From: an uncultured Gemmatimonadales bacterium
GTDB taxonomy: Bacteria > Gemmatimonadota > Gemmatimonadetes > Gemmatimonadales > GWC2-71-9
Direction of reading: 5' to 3'
Assembly (NCBI GenBank): GCA_963812755.1
Contig: CAWEWK010000010.1
Coordinates: 107,872 to 171,871, forward strand
Length of the DNA stretch: 64,000 bases
The first letter of the stretch is position 1. Each line of letters starts with the position of its first letter. Shown in pieces: positions 4,486 to 64,000 of the stretch. The translations under genes were made by a program, and so were the position numbers. The notes under the pieces are model-generated. The model saw nothing but the letters and a program-made list of their open reading frames with translations. It did not search any database and was not told the DNA's origin.

Positions 4486-5796
4486 TCAGTAACGTCGCTC
4501 TAAGGTTACGCCCGGATAGTAGGCCTCGAGAATCCGCTCATGGCTCTGGCCCGCTCGGGACCGGCCAACCGCACCCCACTGGCAGAACCCTACTCCGTGT
4601 CCGGCGCCTCCCCCATTGGCCACCAATCGGGTCACCCGGCGGCCATCACCGGTCACGGTCAGGTCGAAGGCGCTGCTCCGCAGCAACTCGCCGTTGACCG
4701 GGCGCAGCACCTGGCGCACCGCCGGGCCGTTCACGATGACCGGCGAGGGGACCAGTCCGATGGTCAGTTGGCCCACCCGGCCGGACCCGGTTCGCTGGGT
4801 GATCCGTACATCGCGGACCTCTCCAATGCGGTCACCGGACATACCCATCGTGGCCGGCAGCGTGCGTCGAAGAGTGCCCCGGAGCGCCTCGCCGGTCCAC
4901 TCCTCCCGCCAGCGGAAGCGAGGGGAGGTGCTGCAATACGCCGTCCCATCGTCCGCCACGTCGGGCAGCGAGCGGAGATATGGACGGTTGGCCGCACGGA
5001 ATACTTCGGTTCCCTCCGCCGTGCGGCCGCCGCATGTGGAATAGAAGAACGCGTCGATCGGCGCGCCGCCGTAGGTCAGCACCTGACCCCGGGTGGCGAG
5101 GACTGCTTCGGCCCCTTCCGGCGTCTCGCTGGCCACCCCGCCGTACGCCTGGTCGGCCACGGTCGCGTACAAATCGAATCCTTGGGCGGCCCAACGTCGA
5201 AGGTTCCGCATCGCGTAGGTGCGTGACACCACTGCCTGCGCCCGCAACGCTTCCTGCTCTACCAGACTGCGCCGACCCATCTCGGCCGAGACCACGCCCA
5301 ACAGGTAGGACTCCATGCCGAGCCGATTCACCAGGGTGATCCCGGTACGGTCGCGCAACACTTCGACGATGCCCCGGTAGGCGCGGCCATTCAGACGTAC
5401 CGGATCACTGGGCGAGGCGCCTGTCACCGCCAGGGCCTCGGCGGGCGTAGAGGATCCTCCGGTGGGCGCGGTCACCACCAGGCCGGTACCCGCGATGCCG
5501 ACGCGCCATACTTCTCCCGCGCCGATCTCTGCCAGGTGGGAGCCTGAAGGATCGGTGACGCTCAGCGCCCCGCCGCCACCCAGGTTGGCCGCGGCCGCGC
5601 CGACCGCAAGCCCTATCCGGATTTCGGGGTCGAGGGATTCCGGCGCAGTGGGTTCCACCGGCGGGGCACCGGGCGCTGCTGCCGGAGCACAACTGCCCGC
5701 CACTGCCACGACGATACCCCCGGCGACCAGGGCCACCGCGATCCATGCCGCGGACCCCAATCGACGCGGGGATGTATCAGCCGCGGTAATTGCCAA
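4486..5796 (-). CDS. SpoIID/LytB domain-containing protein
   Basis: Motifs YSTCGGRTA and GHGVGFCQWGA. N-terminal TM anchor. Only a TTG start (5796) lies upstream of the TM segment; it overlaps the yajQ stop by 20 nt. Confidence 0.85.
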   Translation of the reverse strand: MAITAADTSPRRLGSAAWIAVALVAGGIVVAVAGSCAPAAAPGAPPVEPTAPESLDPEIRIGLAVGAAAANLGGGGALSVTDPSGSHLAEIGAGEVWRVGIAGTGLVVTAPTGGSSTPAEALAVTGASPSDPVRLNGRAYRGIVEVLRDRTGITLVNRLGMESYLLGVVSAEMGRRSLVEQEALRAQAVVSRTYAMRNLRRWAAQGFDLYATVADQAYGGVASETPEGAEAVLATRGQVLTYGGAPIDAFFYSTCGGRTAEGTEVFRAANRPYLRSLPDVADDGTAYCSTSPRFRWREEWTGEALRGTLRRTLPATMGMSGDRIGEVRDVRITQRTGSGRVGQLTIGLVPSPVIVNGPAVRQVLRPVNGELLRSSAFDLTVTGDGRRVTRLVANGGGAGHGVGFCQWGAVGRSRAGQSHERILEAYYPGVTLERRY

Positions 5797-6280
5797 ACTT
5801 GAGCTCGATCCCGAAGTCCTGTGCGCGGAGCGCCGCGATGACCGCCTGAAGCTCGTCTTTGGACGGGCTGGTCACCCGAACCTCATCGCCTTGAATGGAG
5901 GCCTGGGTCTTCTTGAAGCCGCCGTCCTTCACCGCCTTCACGATCTTCTTGGCCGCGTCCTGAGGAATCCCCTGAGTCAAGCTCACCGTCCGGCGGACCG
6001 ATTGTCCGGTCCCGGGGATCGGATCACCGATCTTGAGGTTCTTGACCGGCACGCCCCGCTTGATCATCCGGGTTTGGAGGACATCGAGCAGGGCGTCCAT
6101 CCGGAACTCGTCGTCGGCGCTGAGCCGGATTTCCGCCTTGGCCCGGTCGAACTCGATGGTGCAATGAGTCCCCTTGAAGTCGTAGCGCTGAGCGATCTCC
6201 TTGAGCGCCTGATTGACGGCGTTGTCGACCTCCTGGAGATCGGCGCCGGTGGAAACGTCGAAGGAAGCGGTTGAAGCCAT
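5777..6280 (-). CDS. yajQ: YajQ family cyclic-di-GMP-binding protein (UPF0234)
   Basis: 167 aa. N-terminus SFDVSTGADLQEVDNAVNQALKEIAQRYDFKG is the characteristic YajQ signature. Confidence 0.9.
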   Translation of the reverse strand: MASTASFDVSTGADLQEVDNAVNQALKEIAQRYDFKGTHCTIEFDRAKAEIRLSADDEFRMDALLDVLQTRMIKRGVPVKNLKIGDPIPGTGQSVRRTVSLTQGIPQDAAKKIVKAVKDGGFKKTQASIQGDEVRVTSPSKDELQAVIAALRAQDFGIELKFGNYRG

Positions 6281-59132: not shown

Positions 59133-60284
59133 CTAGCCCTGGCGGGAGTGGAGCGACCGGAGCGGGATCTCGATTCCTTTCAGGATGGCCGCGGTCAGCT
59201 CGTCCTGGGTAGCGAAGACGTCCTCCACCTGTCGATCGAACCGTTCACACCACCGCTCGAGACCATCCCCGGCGTCCACTAGCCGCACGTGGAGCCTGAT
59301 CCGCTCTCCGGCCTGACGGACGGTCCCTTCGATCAGCGCGGCGACGCCCAGGCGCCGGCCAATCTCCCTGGCGTCCAGCTCCACGCCCCGGAACATCTGG
59401 ACCGAGGTGCGCGCGGTAACTCTGACGCCGTCGATTCGGCCGAGGGCCGCGGCCAGCTCATCGCCCAGTCCCTCGGCGAAGTATCCATTGCTCTCCGCCG
59501 AACTCAGGTTGGCGAAGGGTAGCACAGCGACCGTGATCGCGGACCCGGCAGTCCCCTGCCGGATGGGCGGTTCCCGGGGCCGCCGAAGTTGGGCGGCCAG
59601 TGCCCCGATGGCGGGATTGGGCGCGGCACCGAGCTCGTCGCGGACCAGTGCCTCGTATTCACGGGCGTGTTCCAAGGCGGCAGCGCGATTTCCCGCGGCC
59701 GCCAGGGCCGACATGAGGTGCACCGTCACCCTCGAACTCAAGGGATCCTGCTCCGCCAGACGACGCCACCATTGCGCGGCACTGCGGGAATCCCCTCGCG
59801 CCGCGGCGTCGGCAGCCAAGGTTTCCAGGGCCTCGGCATGCTGATTCGCCAATCCGGCTCGCTCGTTGTCCACCCACCGCTCGAATTCCGCCGCGCCGCT
59901 CAGGAAAAAACCGTCGAGGAACGGCCCGCCATAGAGCGACACGGCGCGCTCCAAATCCCCAGCACCCCGTGCAGCCGAGAACTCCTGGACGTCGCAGAGG
60001 ATGACTTCGGGGTTAAGCCGGAGCTCGTTGCTGCCCAAGAACAGCGACTCGGCGTTGCAGTAACGGCGTAGGGCGTAGAGCACCTGAGTGAGACGGTGGC
60101 CGGCTCGCTCCGGTTCCGTCTCCGGCCAGAGGTAGGCCAGGATCTTGTCGCGACTCATGCCCCGCTCTCCGCTGGGGGCGAGCAGGGCCAGGAGTGCCAG
60201 GGACTTCTTTTGGCCGGCCACGCCACCGGCCGGTGCTCCTTCACGTTCGACTACCGCCCCACCCAGCGTTCGGAATCGGAGCAT
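59133..60284 (-). CDS. SARP-type regulator: winged-helix + BTAD + C-terminal TolB-N-like module
   Basis: LRFRTLGGAVVE...KKSLALLALLA..RDKILAYLWPE (OmpR/SARP wHTH). BTAD helices (DLERAVSLYGGPFLDGF...RVTVHLMSALAAAGNRAAALEHAREY). ITVAVLPFANLSSAESNGYFAEGLGDEL module. Confidence 0.8.
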   Translation of the reverse strand: MLRFRTLGGAVVEREGAPAGGVAGQKKSLALLALLAPSGERGMSRDKILAYLWPETEPERAGHRLTQVLYALRRYCNAESLFLGSNELRLNPEVILCDVQEFSAARGAGDLERAVSLYGGPFLDGFFLSGAAEFERWVDNERAGLANQHAEALETLAADAAARGDSRSAAQWWRRLAEQDPLSSRVTVHLMSALAAAGNRAAALEHAREYEALVRDELGAAPNPAIGALAAQLRRPREPPIRQGTAGSAITVAVLPFANLSSAESNGYFAEGLGDELAAALGRIDGVRVTARTSVQMFRGVELDAREIGRRLGVAALIEGTVRQAGERIRLHVRLVDAGDGLERWCERFDRQVEDVFATQDELTAAILKGIEIPLRSLHSRQG

Positions 60285-60290
60285 GCCATG

Positions 60291-60318
60291 GCCTGAGTAT
60301 GCCTGAGAATTATCTGAG
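60291..60318. promoter_or_regulatory. three phased direct repeats (G)CCTGAG / (G)CCTGAG / TCTGAG, spacing 10 and 11 bp
   Basis: CTGAG at 60293, 60303 and 60314. Begins 7 nt beyond the SARP start codon (60284). 83 nt upstream of the small ORF ATG (60402). Confidence 0.55.
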
Positions 60319-60401
60319 ATCCGTATGACGCGCCCGGCCTATAGTAGGACCACGTTTTTGACGGTGCAAGCGCAGTCATACTTCCAGAGGAGAGTACTAC
60401 A

Positions 60402-60677
60402 ATGTCAGCTCAACTTCGCAACCTGATGGGCGCCGGCTTCGTGGCAGGGTTGATGTTGCTTCCGGCCACTGGGGATGAGCCCTCGGCAGGAGCCCGGGCC
60501 CTGCTCGGACGCGTGGCCACCATCGCCCAGGCGAGCACTCGGTCGGATGCCGCGGACCCCTCTCATCCCCGCGCGGACCAGGCGCTCCTGGGGCGGGTCG
60601 GGGTGAAGCCCACCGTCGTCTCGACCGGATCGAAGTCGATTACCGGCGAGCAGGCAATCCTGGCGAATGGTCGCTAA
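60402..60677 (+). CDS. small secreted protein (91 aa), hypothetical
   Basis: GGAGAG 7 nt upstream of the ATG. Signal-like LMGAGFVAGLMLLPATG. Internal repeat ALLGRV x2 plus QAILANG. GC3-rich. Confidence 0.55.
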   Translation: MSAQLRNLMGAGFVAGLMLLPATGDEPSAGARALLGRVATIAQASTRSDAADPSHPRADQALLGRVGVKPTVVSTGSKSITGEQAILANGR

Positions 60678-60709
60678 GTGAGTGGGCGAGTGACGACATC
60701 AGCGACGCC

Positions 60710-60729
60710 GAGCGGAGCGCTCCGCTCGC
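60710..60729. terminator. 20-nt perfect palindrome between convergent genes (possible bidirectional terminator hairpin)
   Basis: CGAGCGGAGC|GCTCCGCTCG. No flanking T tract. Confidence 0.35.
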
Positions 60730-60747
60730 CGAATGACGGGCAGGACT

Positions 60748-63018
60748 CTAGAAATTGAGACCCATCTTCTCCAACAACGCGAGGAAACGCGGGCCCTGTC
60801 GGTAGGGATGCTCCAACCCCGGTGTCACTCGGGTAAACGCCAGCCAACCGGATCGTTCCGAGATAGCCTGCTCGGCCAGACGAAAGTGCTCATCGATGTC
60901 GTCCAGGCCAAGGTGCACGTAAGCCTCGATCATGGGCGACAAGTAACGCCGCTGCCGCTCCTGCCGAAGCCGGTCGATGATTCGTCTGGCATCCGGCTCC
61001 CTCCCCAACCGTCCGTAGAGATAGCCCGCTACCGCCAGCAGCGTCGGTAGTGGTCCAGCGAGGCTCAAGCCGCTTTCAATCTCAATGAGCGCCTCCTCGT
61101 ATCTCTCCATGTTGCTGAGCGCCCGGGATATCCAGGCACGGGTGAGCCCATACCGCGGCTCCATCTCCGCCGTGGCCCGCAGGTGTTGCAGGGCCTCTTC
61201 ATTCCGATTCGCGAAGGTAAGGGCACGCCCAACGGCCAGGTGAACGATGAGGGAGATGGGATCCAAGGCCTCCGCGCGCCGTAGGATCGCGAGCGCTTCG
61301 TCGTGCCGGCTCATCACACCGAGATAGTTGGCGTACCAGACCTGCGAAACAGTGTCCTCGGGTGCCAGTTCCATAGCCTTCCGGAACTCGGCTTCGGCCC
61401 GGAGCCAATCCCAGTCATACAGTAAGCTGACCGCGCCTAGCCAGCAGTGGGGACTGCCGAGCGTTGGCTCGAGCTCCAGGGCGAGTTGTGCAGCGGTCTT
61501 GGCCTTGGGCATCGTTTCCTTCGGGGGTAGGTCTCCCACGAATTCCTCGAACCCGCGCAGGGTCCAGCAACTGGCCAACCCGGCGTGAGCTCGCGCAAAC
61601 CTAGGATCCCGCTCGATTGACTGCTCGAACAATCCGATCGCGCTTTGGATCCCTTCCTGGGTTCGCTGATTGGCGGCATAGCATCCCTTGAGATACAGAG
61701 TGTAGGCCTCGATACTCGCCGTCGGTGGCTCCACCAGCGGAGCGCTCGCTGCTCCCACCCGTTGGGTCAGCGCCGTGGCGATGGCCTTGGCGAGCTCGTC
61801 CTGAACCGCGAAGACATCGGCCAGGGTTCGATCGTACACTTGAGACCATACCTGGTACCCTTGGGAGGCATCGATCAGCTGGGCGGTGATCCGAATCCGG
61901 TCGCCGACTTTCCGGACGCTCCCCTCGAGCAGGTGCTGCACCTTGAGTCGTTTCCCGATCGATCTCGCGTCCAGACTCTTCCCCTTGAACACGAATGCCG
62001 AGCTGCGCGCCGTCACCCTCAAGCCGGAAATTTGGGACAGCGCGTTGATGACTTCCTCGGTCATCCCGTCGCTGAAGTACTCATTTTCCTGGTCGGCGCT
62101 GAGGTTTACAAAGGGCAAGACGGCGATGGACCCTTGGGACCCCCGAGTGGCTCGCTTGGAAGAACGGGGTCGCTTGGAGGTGTCAGCCACCGCCCCAGTG
62201 ATGAGCTCGGCGAATGCCGCGGCGGTAGCTGGCCGGCCGCTGGGTAACCGCCGCAACCCGGTCTCGACCGCTCGGTCCAGGGCTGCCGGTACCCCAGCCA
62301 CATGATCGCTCAGTTTTGGGGAAGCGTCGTCCAGACGCTCAGCCAGAAGACCGTGGACCGTCCTGGACCTGAACAGAGGCCTTCCCGCCACCATCTCGAA
62401 CAGCACGCAGGCCAGGCTATAGATATCGCTGCGGCCGTCCAACTCCTGCTCGCCCGTCATTTGCTCCGGGCTCATATACAGCGGAGTCCCAACCAGCAGA
62501 CCGGCGTGAGTCAGACTCACATCCCCCGCGAGTCCGAGAGCCCGGGCGATACCGAAGTCCGTGACCAGCGCGTGGCCCTCCTCCAGAAGGATGTTTTCCG
62601 GCTTGATATCGCGGTGCAGGATGTTTCGGCGGTGGGCATAGTCCAGGGCCTCCGCCACCTCCTTCGCAATCCGAACCGCGTCGCCTATGGAAAGCTTCCC
62701 TTCCCGCTCCAACCGTTGCCGGAGCGATTCGCCCTCGATGAGTGGCATGACGTAGTACGGGCCGGATGGCCCCTCGGCGCTCTCCAGGGTTCCCGAGTCG
62801 TAGACCGGCAGGATGTGGGGATGGTGCAGTTGCGCGGTGAGCCGTATTTCTCGGAGAAAGCGCTCGAGGCCCAGGTGGGAGGCCACGTCGGATCGCAACA
62901 CCTTGAGCGCCACCGGCCGGTCGTGCTTGAGATCCCGGGCGAGAAACACCGTGGCCATCCCGCCCTGGCCGATCTCACGCTCGATGATATACCGTTCGGA
63001 AATGCTGGCTCGATTCAT
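60748..63018 (-). CDS. Ser/Thr protein kinase with TolB-N-like module and C-terminal TPR array
   Basis: GQGGMATVFLARD..ALKVL, HRDIKPENILL, DFGIA and SPEQ. Then IAVLPFVNLSADQENEYFSDGMTEEV, then multiple TPR repeats. 756 aa. Confidence 0.9.
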   Translation of the reverse strand: MNRASISERYIIEREIGQGGMATVFLARDLKHDRPVALKVLRSDVASHLGLERFLREIRLTAQLHHPHILPVYDSGTLESAEGPSGPYYVMPLIEGESLRQRLEREGKLSIGDAVRIAKEVAEALDYAHRRNILHRDIKPENILLEEGHALVTDFGIARALGLAGDVSLTHAGLLVGTPLYMSPEQMTGEQELDGRSDIYSLACVLFEMVAGRPLFRSRTVHGLLAERLDDASPKLSDHVAGVPAALDRAVETGLRRLPSGRPATAAAFAELITGAVADTSKRPRSSKRATRGSQGSIAVLPFVNLSADQENEYFSDGMTEEVINALSQISGLRVTARSSAFVFKGKSLDARSIGKRLKVQHLLEGSVRKVGDRIRITAQLIDASQGYQVWSQVYDRTLADVFAVQDELAKAIATALTQRVGAASAPLVEPPTASIEAYTLYLKGCYAANQRTQEGIQSAIGLFEQSIERDPRFARAHAGLASCWTLRGFEEFVGDLPPKETMPKAKTAAQLALELEPTLGSPHCWLGAVSLLYDWDWLRAEAEFRKAMELAPEDTVSQVWYANYLGVMSRHDEALAILRRAEALDPISLIVHLAVGRALTFANRNEEALQHLRATAEMEPRYGLTRAWISRALSNMERYEEALIEIESGLSLAGPLPTLLAVAGYLYGRLGREPDARRIIDRLRQERQRRYLSPMIEAYVHLGLDDIDEHFRLAEQAISERSGWLAFTRVTPGLEHPYRQGPRFLALLEKMGLNF

Positions 63019-63045
63019 CTGAGGATTTTCTGAGCCGCGGCTGAG
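63019..63045. promoter_or_regulatory. three phased CTGAG direct repeats, spacing 11 and 11 bp
   Basis: CTGAG at 63019, 63030 and 63041. The first repeat abuts the kinase start codon (63016-63018). 86 nt upstream of the ALDH ATG (63132). Confidence 0.55.
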
Positions 63046-63131
63046 GAAGAAGCTCTATTGTATGGCGCGGTTTCAGGGAGTGCAATCAATCCGCCTCATT
63101 CGCGCCTGGCTTCATCGGCGAGGAGAGCTCA

Positions 63132-64000
63132 ATGGCTACTGTCGCGGCAGCCAACCCATTCCATCGCGCCCAAACGACTTCGCGCCCCCAGCTGGACCAG
63201 ATGATCCGGCGGCTCCAGGACGGCAGCCGAGGCTTTGCTCGACTGTCGCTCCCCGAGCGTATCTCACTCGCCCGCTCCATGCAGGCCGGTTATCTGGCGA
63301 TCGCCCGAGAGAGTGTGGCCGCCGCCTGCGCTGCCAAGGGGGTTGCCCTGGGGACTTCCGCGGAGGGTGAGGAGTGGTTCAATCCCTGGTCCGTGGTGCG
63401 GCATTTGCGCCTCGTGGCGGAGGCACTCACCGCGCTGGCCCGCAAAGGAAACACTCCGATTGGACCGGTGAGCCGGACTGTAGATGGCAGGCTGGCCGTG
63501 CAAGTGTTTCCGGTGAGTCCGGTGGACCGGGTGCTCTTTCCGAGAATTACAACGGAAGTCCATCTGGCAACCGGGCAGACTGAAGAGGAGATGACCCGCT
63601 CCCGGGCGCGTTGGTACAAGTCAGAGCCTCTGGAGAGCGGGCCGGTGTTGGTCCTCGGGGCCGGGAACATGTCGATGATCCCCGCCATGGATGTCATCAC
63701 CAAACTCTTCAACGAAGGCAAGGTCTGTCTCTTGAAGATGAATCCGGTGAACGCCTATCACGGCCCGTTCATCGAGACCGCTTTCGCCGAGCCGATCGCG
63801 CGCGGCTTTCTGGCGGTGGCGTATGGCGGCGCCGAAGAAGGCGCGCACCTCGTCCAGCACCCCGGCATCGCGGAAGTGCACTTGACGGGCTCGGACCGGA
63901 CCTACGATGCCATGGTCTGGGGCCCCGCCGGGCCCGAGCGGGAGCTTCGGAAAGCCCGGAATACTCCGGCCCTGACCAAGCCAGTCACGGCAGAGCTGGG
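63132..64000 (+). CDS. aldehyde dehydrogenase family protein (3' end outside window)
   Basis: My own translation from ATG 63132 (AGGAGAG upstream): MATVAAANPFHRAQ...VLVLGAGNMSMIPAMDVITKLFNEGKVCLLKMNPVN...VHLTGSDRTYDAMVWG...TAELG. Open to the window end; not in the ORF track because it lacks a stop. Confidence 0.8.
   Translation, partial: MATVAAANPFHRAQTTSRPQLDQMIRRLQDGSRGFARLSLPERISLARSMQAGYLAIARESVAAACAAKGVALGTSAEGEEWFNPWSVVRHLRLVAEALTALARKGNTPIGPVSRTVDGRLAVQVFPVSPVDRVLFPRITTEVHLATGQTEEEMTRSRARWYKSEPLESGPVLVLGAGNMSMIPAMDVITKLFNEGKVCLLKMNPVNAYHGPFIETAFAEPIARGFLAVAYGGAEEGAHLVQHPGIAEVHLTGSDRTYDAMVWGPAGPERELRKARNTPALTKPVTAEL

Follow-up and report, generated by a model that had tools for sequence, protein, structure and literature searches.

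Genes and repeat arrays at the locus

Two arrays of short direct repeats are found near the right end of the 64-kb window (the whole stretch of DNA that was analyzed), one just upstream of a regulator gene and the other just upstream of a gene for a Ser/Thr protein kinase. Both genes lie on the minus strand, and a divergent gene on the plus strand begins on the other side of each array. The features are as follows.

59133..60284, minus strand: regulator gene, whose product combines a winged helix of the OmpR type with BTAD and, at the C terminus, a TolB-N/PelC/LpoB-like domain
60293..60318, minus strand: regulator array of three exact units, with cores at 60314-60318, 60303-60307 and 60293-60297
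60325..60329, minus strand: fourth, degenerate and promoter-proximal unit of the regulator array, GTCAT on the gene strand (ATGAC on the plus strand), in the 11-bp register
60402..60677, plus strand: divergent small ORF of 91 amino acids, with a signal peptide and with (R/Q)ALLGR occurring three times; putative target of the array
60748..63018, minus strand: Ser/Thr protein kinase gene, with a TolB-N-like domain and TPR repeats
63019..63045, minus strand: kinase array of three exact units, with CTGAG at 63019-63023, 63030-63034 and 63041-63045
63132..64000, plus strand, leaving the window: divergent ALDH-family gene; candidate target of the array at the kinase site

The plus strand reads GCCTGAGTATGCCTGAGAATTATCTGAG at positions 60291-60318 and CTGAGGATTTTCTGAGCCGCGGCTGAG at positions 63019-63045. 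When read along the genes, the regulator array has the form CTCAG-N6-CTCAG-N5-CTCAG (spacings of 10 and 11 between the CTGAG units of the plus strand), and the kinase array has the form CTCAG-N6-CTCAG-N6-CTCAG (spacings of 11 and 11), with the ATG following directly; the two arrays are in one orientation relative to their own downstream genes, 59133-60284 (-) and 60748-63018 (-). A sequence-only reading of this DNA had pointed out a CTGAG triplet at 60293, 60303 and 60314, with units one turn apart, and a second triplet at the kinase gene (63019-63045). The sequence of the first is as described there, and an exact match was found for the second. The distance of 83 nt from the regulator array to the divergent small ORF is also correct as given; the gap between this array and the regulator ATG (60284..60282), given as 7 nt, is actually 8 nt.

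The pattern CTGAG-N5/6-CTGAG-N5/6-CTGAG has two matches when both strands of the 64 kb are searched and none in 100 dinucleotide-preserving shuffles. With only these two matches per 64 kb, the earlier statement that the triplet exists in no other intergenic region here holds. Single CTGAG pentamers are under-represented in the window (95 observed versus 164 +/- 13 expected), and no further TCAG-N7-TCAG pair was found elsewhere in the 64 kb. The sole further CTGAG pair at close distance, with a spacing of 12 at 5960-5976 (inside a coding ORF, minus strand), was rejected as a third site.

Regulator and kinase products

The regulator product consists of 383 amino acids. Pfam recognized its BTAD domain (PF03704, E = 1.2e-16) at residues 107-234 and gave a weak match to Trans_reg_C (18.1 bits, under the cut-off of 26.2), and a profile of the orthologs matched EmbR (2FEZ, 6e-8) and AfsR (about 4e-6) over the winged helix and BTAD. 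In the AlphaFold2 model (pLDDT 90.6), a beta-sheet, helices a1-a3 and a wing are followed by the BTAD helices and then by an alpha/beta domain; the recognition helix a3 comprises residues 58-75. The best fold matches of the model are the SARP domain of AfsR in transcription complexes (8K60, 5e-10; 8HVR) and EmbR, and the C-terminal domain matches the folds of GNA1162, PelC, LpoB and the TolB N-terminal domain. No receiver domain was recognized by Pfam or in the structure model. According to this model, the protein has the predicted structure of a SARP domain, that is, an OmpR-type winged helix and then BTAD. Its relatives are annotated as "BTAD domain-containing putative transcriptional regulator", "TolB-like protein" or "SARP family activator", and those that are named belong to the Gemmatimonadales. 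A literature search on this regulator family in Gemmatimonadetes returned nothing relevant. A low share of the window sequence was found in sequencing runs, all of them of soil DNA and none of RNA.

The TolB-N-like domains of the regulator and the kinase are 49% identical over 141 amino acids, and the kinase gene has no Shine-Dalgarno sequence. Across the family (locus numbers are those of the survey below), the regulator and kinase genes are either adjacent, or in one operon (L001, L008 and L010), or fused (L063 and L078).

Conservation of the arrays

The loci compared here comprise 7 from genomes, 80 from soil metagenomes and 3 from closer relatives. When an array was defined as at least three TCAG at spacings of 10-12 nt, with both strands counted, 31 arrays were found in 768 kb of Gemmatimonadota DNA, made up of the flanks (up to about 10 kb per locus) of loci chosen for encoding the regulator, versus 0.4 expected from shuffles. 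All 31 are sense-oriented and located at most 200 nt upstream of a regulator or kinase homolog. Addition of the three closer relatives raises the number to 35 arrays. Many of the metagenome loci are close kin of each other, and the 35 arrays fall in 21 sequence clusters at 75% identity.

The arrays are specific to the regulator family and its partner kinase and are strictly phased: in 82 units from 24 non-identical arrays, the spacing is 11 bp in 56 of the 58 intervals and 10 bp in the other two. Among these 82 units, T-C-A-G alone is invariant, with a weak A/C preference on each side, and the 7-nt spacers are unconstrained; the CTCAG of the window is therefore one case of nTCAG. The CTGAG pentamers that the sequence-only reading took for the motif do exist, but the core conserved across orthologs is TCAG only. 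At the position of the fourth unit, the orthologs have TCAC, TCAT or TCAG. L089, which shows 74% protein identity and the gene order of the window, and L090, with 67% protein identity, both have an array of four units at the regulator and one of three units at the kinase. In the more distant loci, where the kinase is in the regulator operon or fused, no separate kinase array was found. L014, where an array precedes a kinase fragment by 181 nt, was left out; the contig of this locus looks frameshifted.

Selection acts on the arrays, since conservation is confined to the cores and does not extend to the spacers. The two sites in the window have their promoter architecture in common and could be mutual copies, and they might accordingly be due to chance or to a neutral, functionless duplication of an intergenic segment. 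However, no arrays exist in the shuffles, the cores have been conserved across 21 sequence clusters in which the spacers diverged, and relatives with 67-74% protein identity have retained both sites; chance or neutral duplication is effectively refuted. Most likely, the repeats are sites at which the neighboring SARP-like factor docks to the DNA, in an arrangement that is conserved in soil Gemmatimonadota, follows the known rules of this regulator class and does not represent a novel type of element.

At 56 of 61 loci a divergent ORF is present that has a Shine-Dalgarno sequence and in most cases codes for a lipoprotein or a product with a signal peptide. It begins 60-330 nt, and mostly about 100-170 nt, away from the start codon of the regulator on the upstream side. 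The divergent small ORF of the window is kept in L089, L001 and L009, and the ALDH gene is the syntenic divergent neighbor in L002-L005 and L089. The gap between the ALDH and kinase genes of L089 is only 82 nt, and there is therefore no room for a separate ALDH promoter.

Predicted promoters on the two strands

Each array of the window is preceded by a predicted, conserved promoter of the sigma-70 type with the form TTGCAC-N17-TACWAT, and the predicted elements are as follows.

60364..60369, minus strand: -35 of the regulator gene, TTGCAC, 17 bp upstream of TACTAT
60346..60341, minus strand: -10 of the regulator gene, TACTAT, within the palindrome 60340..60346
63080..63085, minus strand: -35 of the kinase gene, TTGCAC, 17 bp upstream of TACAAT
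63062..63057, minus strand: -10 of the kinase gene, TACAAT, within the palindrome 63056..63062
60340-60345, plus strand: -10 of the divergent small ORF, TATAGT, facing the ORF at 60402
63056-63061, plus strand: -10 of the divergent ALDH gene, TATTGT, facing the gene at 63132

On the gene-sense strand, the kinase promoter of L089 has the identical TTGCAC-N17-TACAAT, and the pattern cTTGCnn-N17-C-TAnnnT is present in 30 of 61 non-redundant upstream regions, versus 0.7% of control segments. With the pattern relaxed, 41 promoters can be aligned; TTGC is kept in 29-37 of them, depending on the position, and they have C at -1 in 32 cases, A at +6 in 29 and G at +7 in 29. A generic promoter/terminator scan of the window missed these promoters, as TTGCAC and TTGACA agree at three of six positions only. 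The promoters are thus defined by conservation, and the transcription starts are predicted from the -10 alone. By assuming a start 7 nt from the -10, the first repeat, which begins 12 nt past the -10, is placed at about +6, and the arrays of the window are therefore inside the predicted 5' leaders, reaching or nearing the start codon. Inspection of the alignments revealed no conserved -10 between the arrays and the genes that they precede, where the classic SARP orientation would place it.

In window-type loci the -10 is enclosed by the palindrome C-TAnnnTA-G, whereas A+6 and G+7 are lacking in the promoters of the leaderless clade described below. Because the -10 is palindromic, the opposite strand bears the same C-TAnnnT signal with an offset of 1 bp. 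The divergent strand of the window accordingly reads CTGAG (63041-63045)-N10-TATTGT at the kinase site and ATGAC (60325-60329)-N10-TATAGT at the regulator site, and both predicted divergent promoters are without a -35. A [T/C]AnnnT hexamer is found on the divergent strand in all 27 non-identical arrays, 9-10 nt past the proximal pentamer in 20 of them, whereas in the remaining seven one degenerate unit intervenes and the distance is 20-21 nt; the background of TAnnnT is 0.2% per position. The spacing of the hexamer holds in the leaderless clade too, where the regulator's own promoter sits elsewhere.

A pentamer plus 10 nt is equivalent to a heptamer plus 8 bp. In SARP promoters, the 3' repeat is 8 bp from the -10 and the repeats are 11 or 22 bp apart (PMC10936776; PMC11301090), and this spacing is found here toward the predicted promoters of the divergent genes only, not in the gene-sense direction. 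As seen from the divergent promoter, the array extends from about -23 to -60 with cores at about -27 and -38, the same core positions as in the AfsR-afsS complex. However, AfsR reads TCA on the non-template strand, along the direction of transcription (PMC11301090), whereas TCA(G) here reads toward the two minus-strand genes. With respect to the divergent promoter, the array is thus the reverse of a SARP box, which makes it uncertain whether this promoter could be activated from the array. The homology of so short a core to the TCA of AfsR is uncertain as well.

These features bear on the idea that the operator mainly activates the divergent small secreted ORF and the ALDH gene, as SARPs classically do, and leaves the regulator and the kinase largely unaffected. 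The invariant distance of a heptamer plus 8 bp to the divergent -10, which includes the leaderless clade, the lack of a -35 in the divergent promoter, the palindromic -10 and the almost constant presence of a divergent gene are all consistent with this idea, as is the agreement with the SARP rule of PMC10936776 and PMC11301090. On the other hand, the array is inverted with respect to the TCA reading of AfsR, proteins lined up from +6 to +45 of a strong promoter would hardly be without effect, and at bidirectional promoters activation in one direction tends to go along with repression in the other (PMC12825309). Activation of the divergent genes as the main role is thus conceivable, though we regard it as rather unlikely.

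Repeat core and recognition helix

When the 80-nt upstream regions of 55 non-redundant family members were searched for 4-mer self-matches, a sharp peak of 184 was found at a lag of 11, versus a background of about 15, with echoes at lags of 22 and 33. The lag-11 peak was also recognized (87) in the 35 upstream regions without TCAG, and a coding control showed a 3-nt period only. The residues of the recognition helix and the repeat cores that go with them are as follows.

H63-[R/S/A]64...Q67: core TCA(G)
[N/S]63-L64...C69: core GTCAA
K63-L64, D67, R71: core TCGCC
S67, V71: core TGAAC
T63-S64: core GGTnA

Residues Q67 and A71 of the regulator align with T88 and R92 of AfsR, which make base-specific contacts in cryo-EM structures (PMC10936776; PMC11301090). 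From clade to clade, the repeat core co-varies with the predicted recognition helix of the regulator, in a correlation that is inflated by shared ancestry. Even so, the pattern is what would be expected for the autoregulatory sites of a diversifying DNA-binding family.

Direct repeats of 11 bp with a TCA-type core, such as the PhoB/PhoP boxes, are common to many OmpR-family regulators. The array could accordingly be the operator of a different protein of the OmpR/PhoB type, for example a response regulator, for which the neighboring SARP-like protein would be a target only; indeed, AfsR and PhoP share sites (PMC10936776). However, the core tracks the recognition helix of the adjacent protein, including the positions of the AfsR base contacts, and the arrays in the 768 kb are located at this gene family only. 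We therefore consider a different binder improbable.

DNA operator or RNA signal

The sequence-only reading had proposed a shared DNA cis-element for autoregulation of the regulator and co-regulation of the kinase and, as an alternative, a CUCAG signal at the RNA level, in which UCAG repeats would act in the 5' leaders, for example through an RNA-binding protein that masks the ribosome-binding region. Several features would suit the latter: the array is flanked by the predicted -10 and the start codon in the window and in most clades, its final unit either directly adjoins the ATG or overlaps AGG(T)G, which resembles a Shine-Dalgarno sequence, the kinase gene is without a Shine-Dalgarno sequence, and the leaders are predicted to be unstructured and thus accessible.

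However, in one clade (L053, L055, L065, L075 and L077) an array of 3-4 CTCAG units exists upstream of the -35 of a conserved promoter, with a divergent gene beyond the array. The first possible start codon of these five loci is exactly 6 nt past the -10; the mRNA is therefore predicted to be leaderless, and the array is outside the transcript of that promoter. In addition, the strict 11-nt phase and the fixed spacing to the -10 hexamer represent a DNA geometry, and the core co-varies with a helix for the recognition of DNA. Rfam gave no match at E <= 1 within 60150-63250, and no structure signal was detected in the leaders, which fold no better than shuffled sequences (z-scores of +0.15 to +1.8). 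The position of the array in the leaderless clade, the strict helical phase and the co-variation with the helix together favor a function at the DNA level over one at the RNA level. An RNA signal thus appears very improbable as the main explanation, although an additional effect at the RNA level may exist where the array is transcribed, as in most clades. The shared DNA element, by contrast, is supported by the placement of all 31 arrays, their phasing, the co-variation with the predicted helix, the AfsR/EmbR fold of the modeled regulator and the presence of both arrays in the closer relatives.

Proposed function of the arrays

Taken together, these comparisons suggest that the repeats are likely to be an operator that is common to the regulator and kinase genes and is recognized by the adjacent SARP-like regulator. 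The operator would consist of 3-4 direct units with an nTCAG core in the gene sense, 11 bp or one helical turn apart, to which the winged-helix domain of the 59133-60284 product would bind side by side. Because the arrays are downstream of the genes' own promoters, repression is likelier there than the classic activation by SARPs. OmpR-family sites at or downstream of a core promoter generally repress. Judging from its position, occupancy of the operator likely represses the regulator and kinase genes: it would extend from +6 to about +45 and block the transcription of both, resulting in negative feedback and co-repression.

A more tentative reading is that the same occupancy activates the -35-less divergent promoters and so switches the orientation of the polymerase. 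The bound regulator would then turn RNA polymerase from its own gene to the divergent genes for the small secreted protein and ALDH. The kinase is known in other systems to act on its regulator: AfsK acts on AfsR, and PknH on EmbR, by phosphorylation. By analogy with AfsK-AfsR and PknH-EmbR, the kinase probably controls the binding of the regulator here, which it would modulate by phosphorylation. The most extended version of this scheme is a speculative one, which we would rather doubt than accept: the strong TTGC/-10 promoter, when unbound, would transcribe the regulator or the kinase, the kinase-controlled protein would block this direction when on the 3-4 units and flip the polymerase on the same -10 toward the gene for a secreted protein or ALDH, and the module would be Gemmatimonadota-wide with a readable code (helix positions 63/64/67/71 versus core).

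Comparison with known systems

The closest parallels are the SARP boxes, that is, the afs box of AfsR at afsS and the heptamer repeats of ActII-ORF4/DnrI. In these, as here, direct repeats are 11 bp apart, the proximal repeat is 8 bp (in the heptamer count) from a -10 with a poor -35, and the regulator has an OmpR-type winged helix plus BTAD and a partner Ser/Thr kinase; the TTCAG/TCA core of AfsR resembles the core of the window. However, SARPs are from Actinobacteria, whereas the present family is from Gemmatimonadota, and their C-terminal domain is NOD-TPR or FHA, whereas that of the present regulator is TolB-N/PelC-like and common to the kinase. SARP boxes have two units, as compared with 3-4 units and a 4-bp core here. 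Unlike SARP boxes, the array here is located in the leaders of both the regulator and the kinase, in a palindromic -10 region, and is reversed with respect to the promoter from which it has the 8-bp spacing; its binder, moreover, is a predicted one.

The PHO boxes of PhoB in E. coli and PhoP in Streptomyces consist of tandem 11-nt units in variable number with a short TCA-containing core, and their position relative to the promoter decides between activation and repression. The tandem 11-bp units and the TCA core are the same here, whereas the present regulator is without a receiver domain and the core is only 4 bp. EmbR-PknH of Mycobacterium and AfsR-AfsK of Streptomyces combine a SARP-domain regulator with a Hanks-type Ser/Thr kinase, as does the present locus. 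Unlike these pairs, no FHA domain exists here, and the regulator and the kinase have a TolB-N-like domain in common.

Bidirectional promoters with a symmetric -10 have been described by Warman, Grainger and co-workers (PMC12825309), and TAnnnT exists on both strands with a 1-bp offset in those as well as in the present promoters. However, the promoters here are recognized from sequence conservation, and one direction has a good -35 (TTGC) whereas the other has the array instead. The shared -10 predicts divergent starts about 18 bp apart, in the window near 60333 and 63049 for the sense direction and near 60352 and 63068 for the divergent one, and a flanking regulator site could bias the direction.

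To our knowledge, SARP regulators have been studied almost solely in actinomycetes, as activators of antibiotic biosynthesis. The present results provide a well-supported and testable operator prediction for an uncharacterized SARP-like family that is abundant in soil Gemmatimonadota, with a predicted regulon composed of the regulator, the partner kinase and the divergent genes for the secreted protein and ALDH, and a predicted promoter consensus for the phylum, TTGC-N17-C-TAnnnT. The locus may also represent a natural case of a regulator that acts on a shared bidirectional -10, and, if the polymerase does switch direction as outlined above, SARP-type proteins can activate from an inverted box. 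The natural variants of helix and operator could be used for working out the recognition code.

Promoters and leaders of the regulator and kinase genes

Two -10 regions in the window have the palindromic form C-TAnnnTA-G, which was also compared in 41 aligned loci:

60338-60348, palindromic -10 region
63054-63064, palindromic -10 region

Owing to the palindrome, C-TAnnnT is present on both strands with an offset of 1 bp, in the window and in the aligned loci, and this suggests that such sites serve as shared bidirectional promoters. The sequences also suggest TTGC-N17-C-TAnnnT as a promoter consensus for the phylum.

In one clade of homologue loci (L053, L055-L060, L065, L067, L075 and L077), the arrangement TTGCyn-N17-TA[C/G]GTT-N6-[G/A]TG is conserved, as in the following example:

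L056, 1827-1910, promoter and start codon arrangement

This spacing implies, at the sequence level, that the regulator mRNAs of the clade would be leaderless. The array of phased CTCAG repeats is located upstream of the -35 element in these loci, and the spacers of the array are conserved as well (TCAGAGTTG). In three members (L053, L075 and L077), the regulator-sense strand carries a conserved GGAGG(C) about 20-30 nt upstream of the arrays. Translation of a short reading frame spanning the array gives similar peptides (…HGxFR[VL]xSELSQ[TS]*) for two of these loci; neither conservation of its start codon nor a synonymous-substitution bias was seen in the three.

At the kinase gene (window 63016-63050, minus strand), the ATG follows directly on the last CTCAG, so the start codon lacks a Shine-Dalgarno sequence. 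The kinase start of the closer relative L089 has the same structure, with the last CTCAG against the ATG and no Shine-Dalgarno sequence; the kinase leader of L090, another closer relative, is about 60 nt longer.

CTGAG across the window

CTGAG/CTCAG is markedly rarer in the window than expected from dinucleotide shuffles (95 vs 164 ± 13), for which codon usage and avoidance of CTNAG-type restriction sites are possible causes. The only other close CTGAG pair in the window is coding sequence within an ORF outside the list of those of at least 200 aa, the product of which may be YajQ-like, judged by eye:

5777-6279, minus strand, ORF of about 167 aa

Domain shuffling

The regulator and the kinase each contain a domain of the TolB-N/PelC/LpoB-like type, and the two copies are 49% identical over 141 aa:

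59184-59606, domain in the regulator
61780-62196, domain in the kinase

This fold is periplasmic as a rule. No obvious membrane segment was found in the regulator or the kinase, and the domain here may be a cytoplasmic module for partner recognition or ligand binding. Domain shuffling is evident in the regulator family (L063 4181-4940, L078, L074/L076, L006; L002-L005): the winged helix and BTAD are joined directly to a kinase domain in some members, and in others the winged helix, BTAD and TolB-like domain are fused to the TPR region seen in the window's kinase.

The divergent small ORF

The small ORF divergent from the regulator gene has counterparts in close relatives:

Window 60402-60677, plus strand, divergent small ORF
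L089 5007-5291, minus strand, counterpart
L001 5574-5873, minus strand, counterpart
L009 630-959, minus strand, counterpart

The products of these four ORFs (91-109 aa) gave no Pfam match. Each has a signal peptide, after which the short motif (R/Q)ALLGR occurs three times with variable linkers in between, a layout with which the ORF could encode a secreted repeat-peptide precursor.
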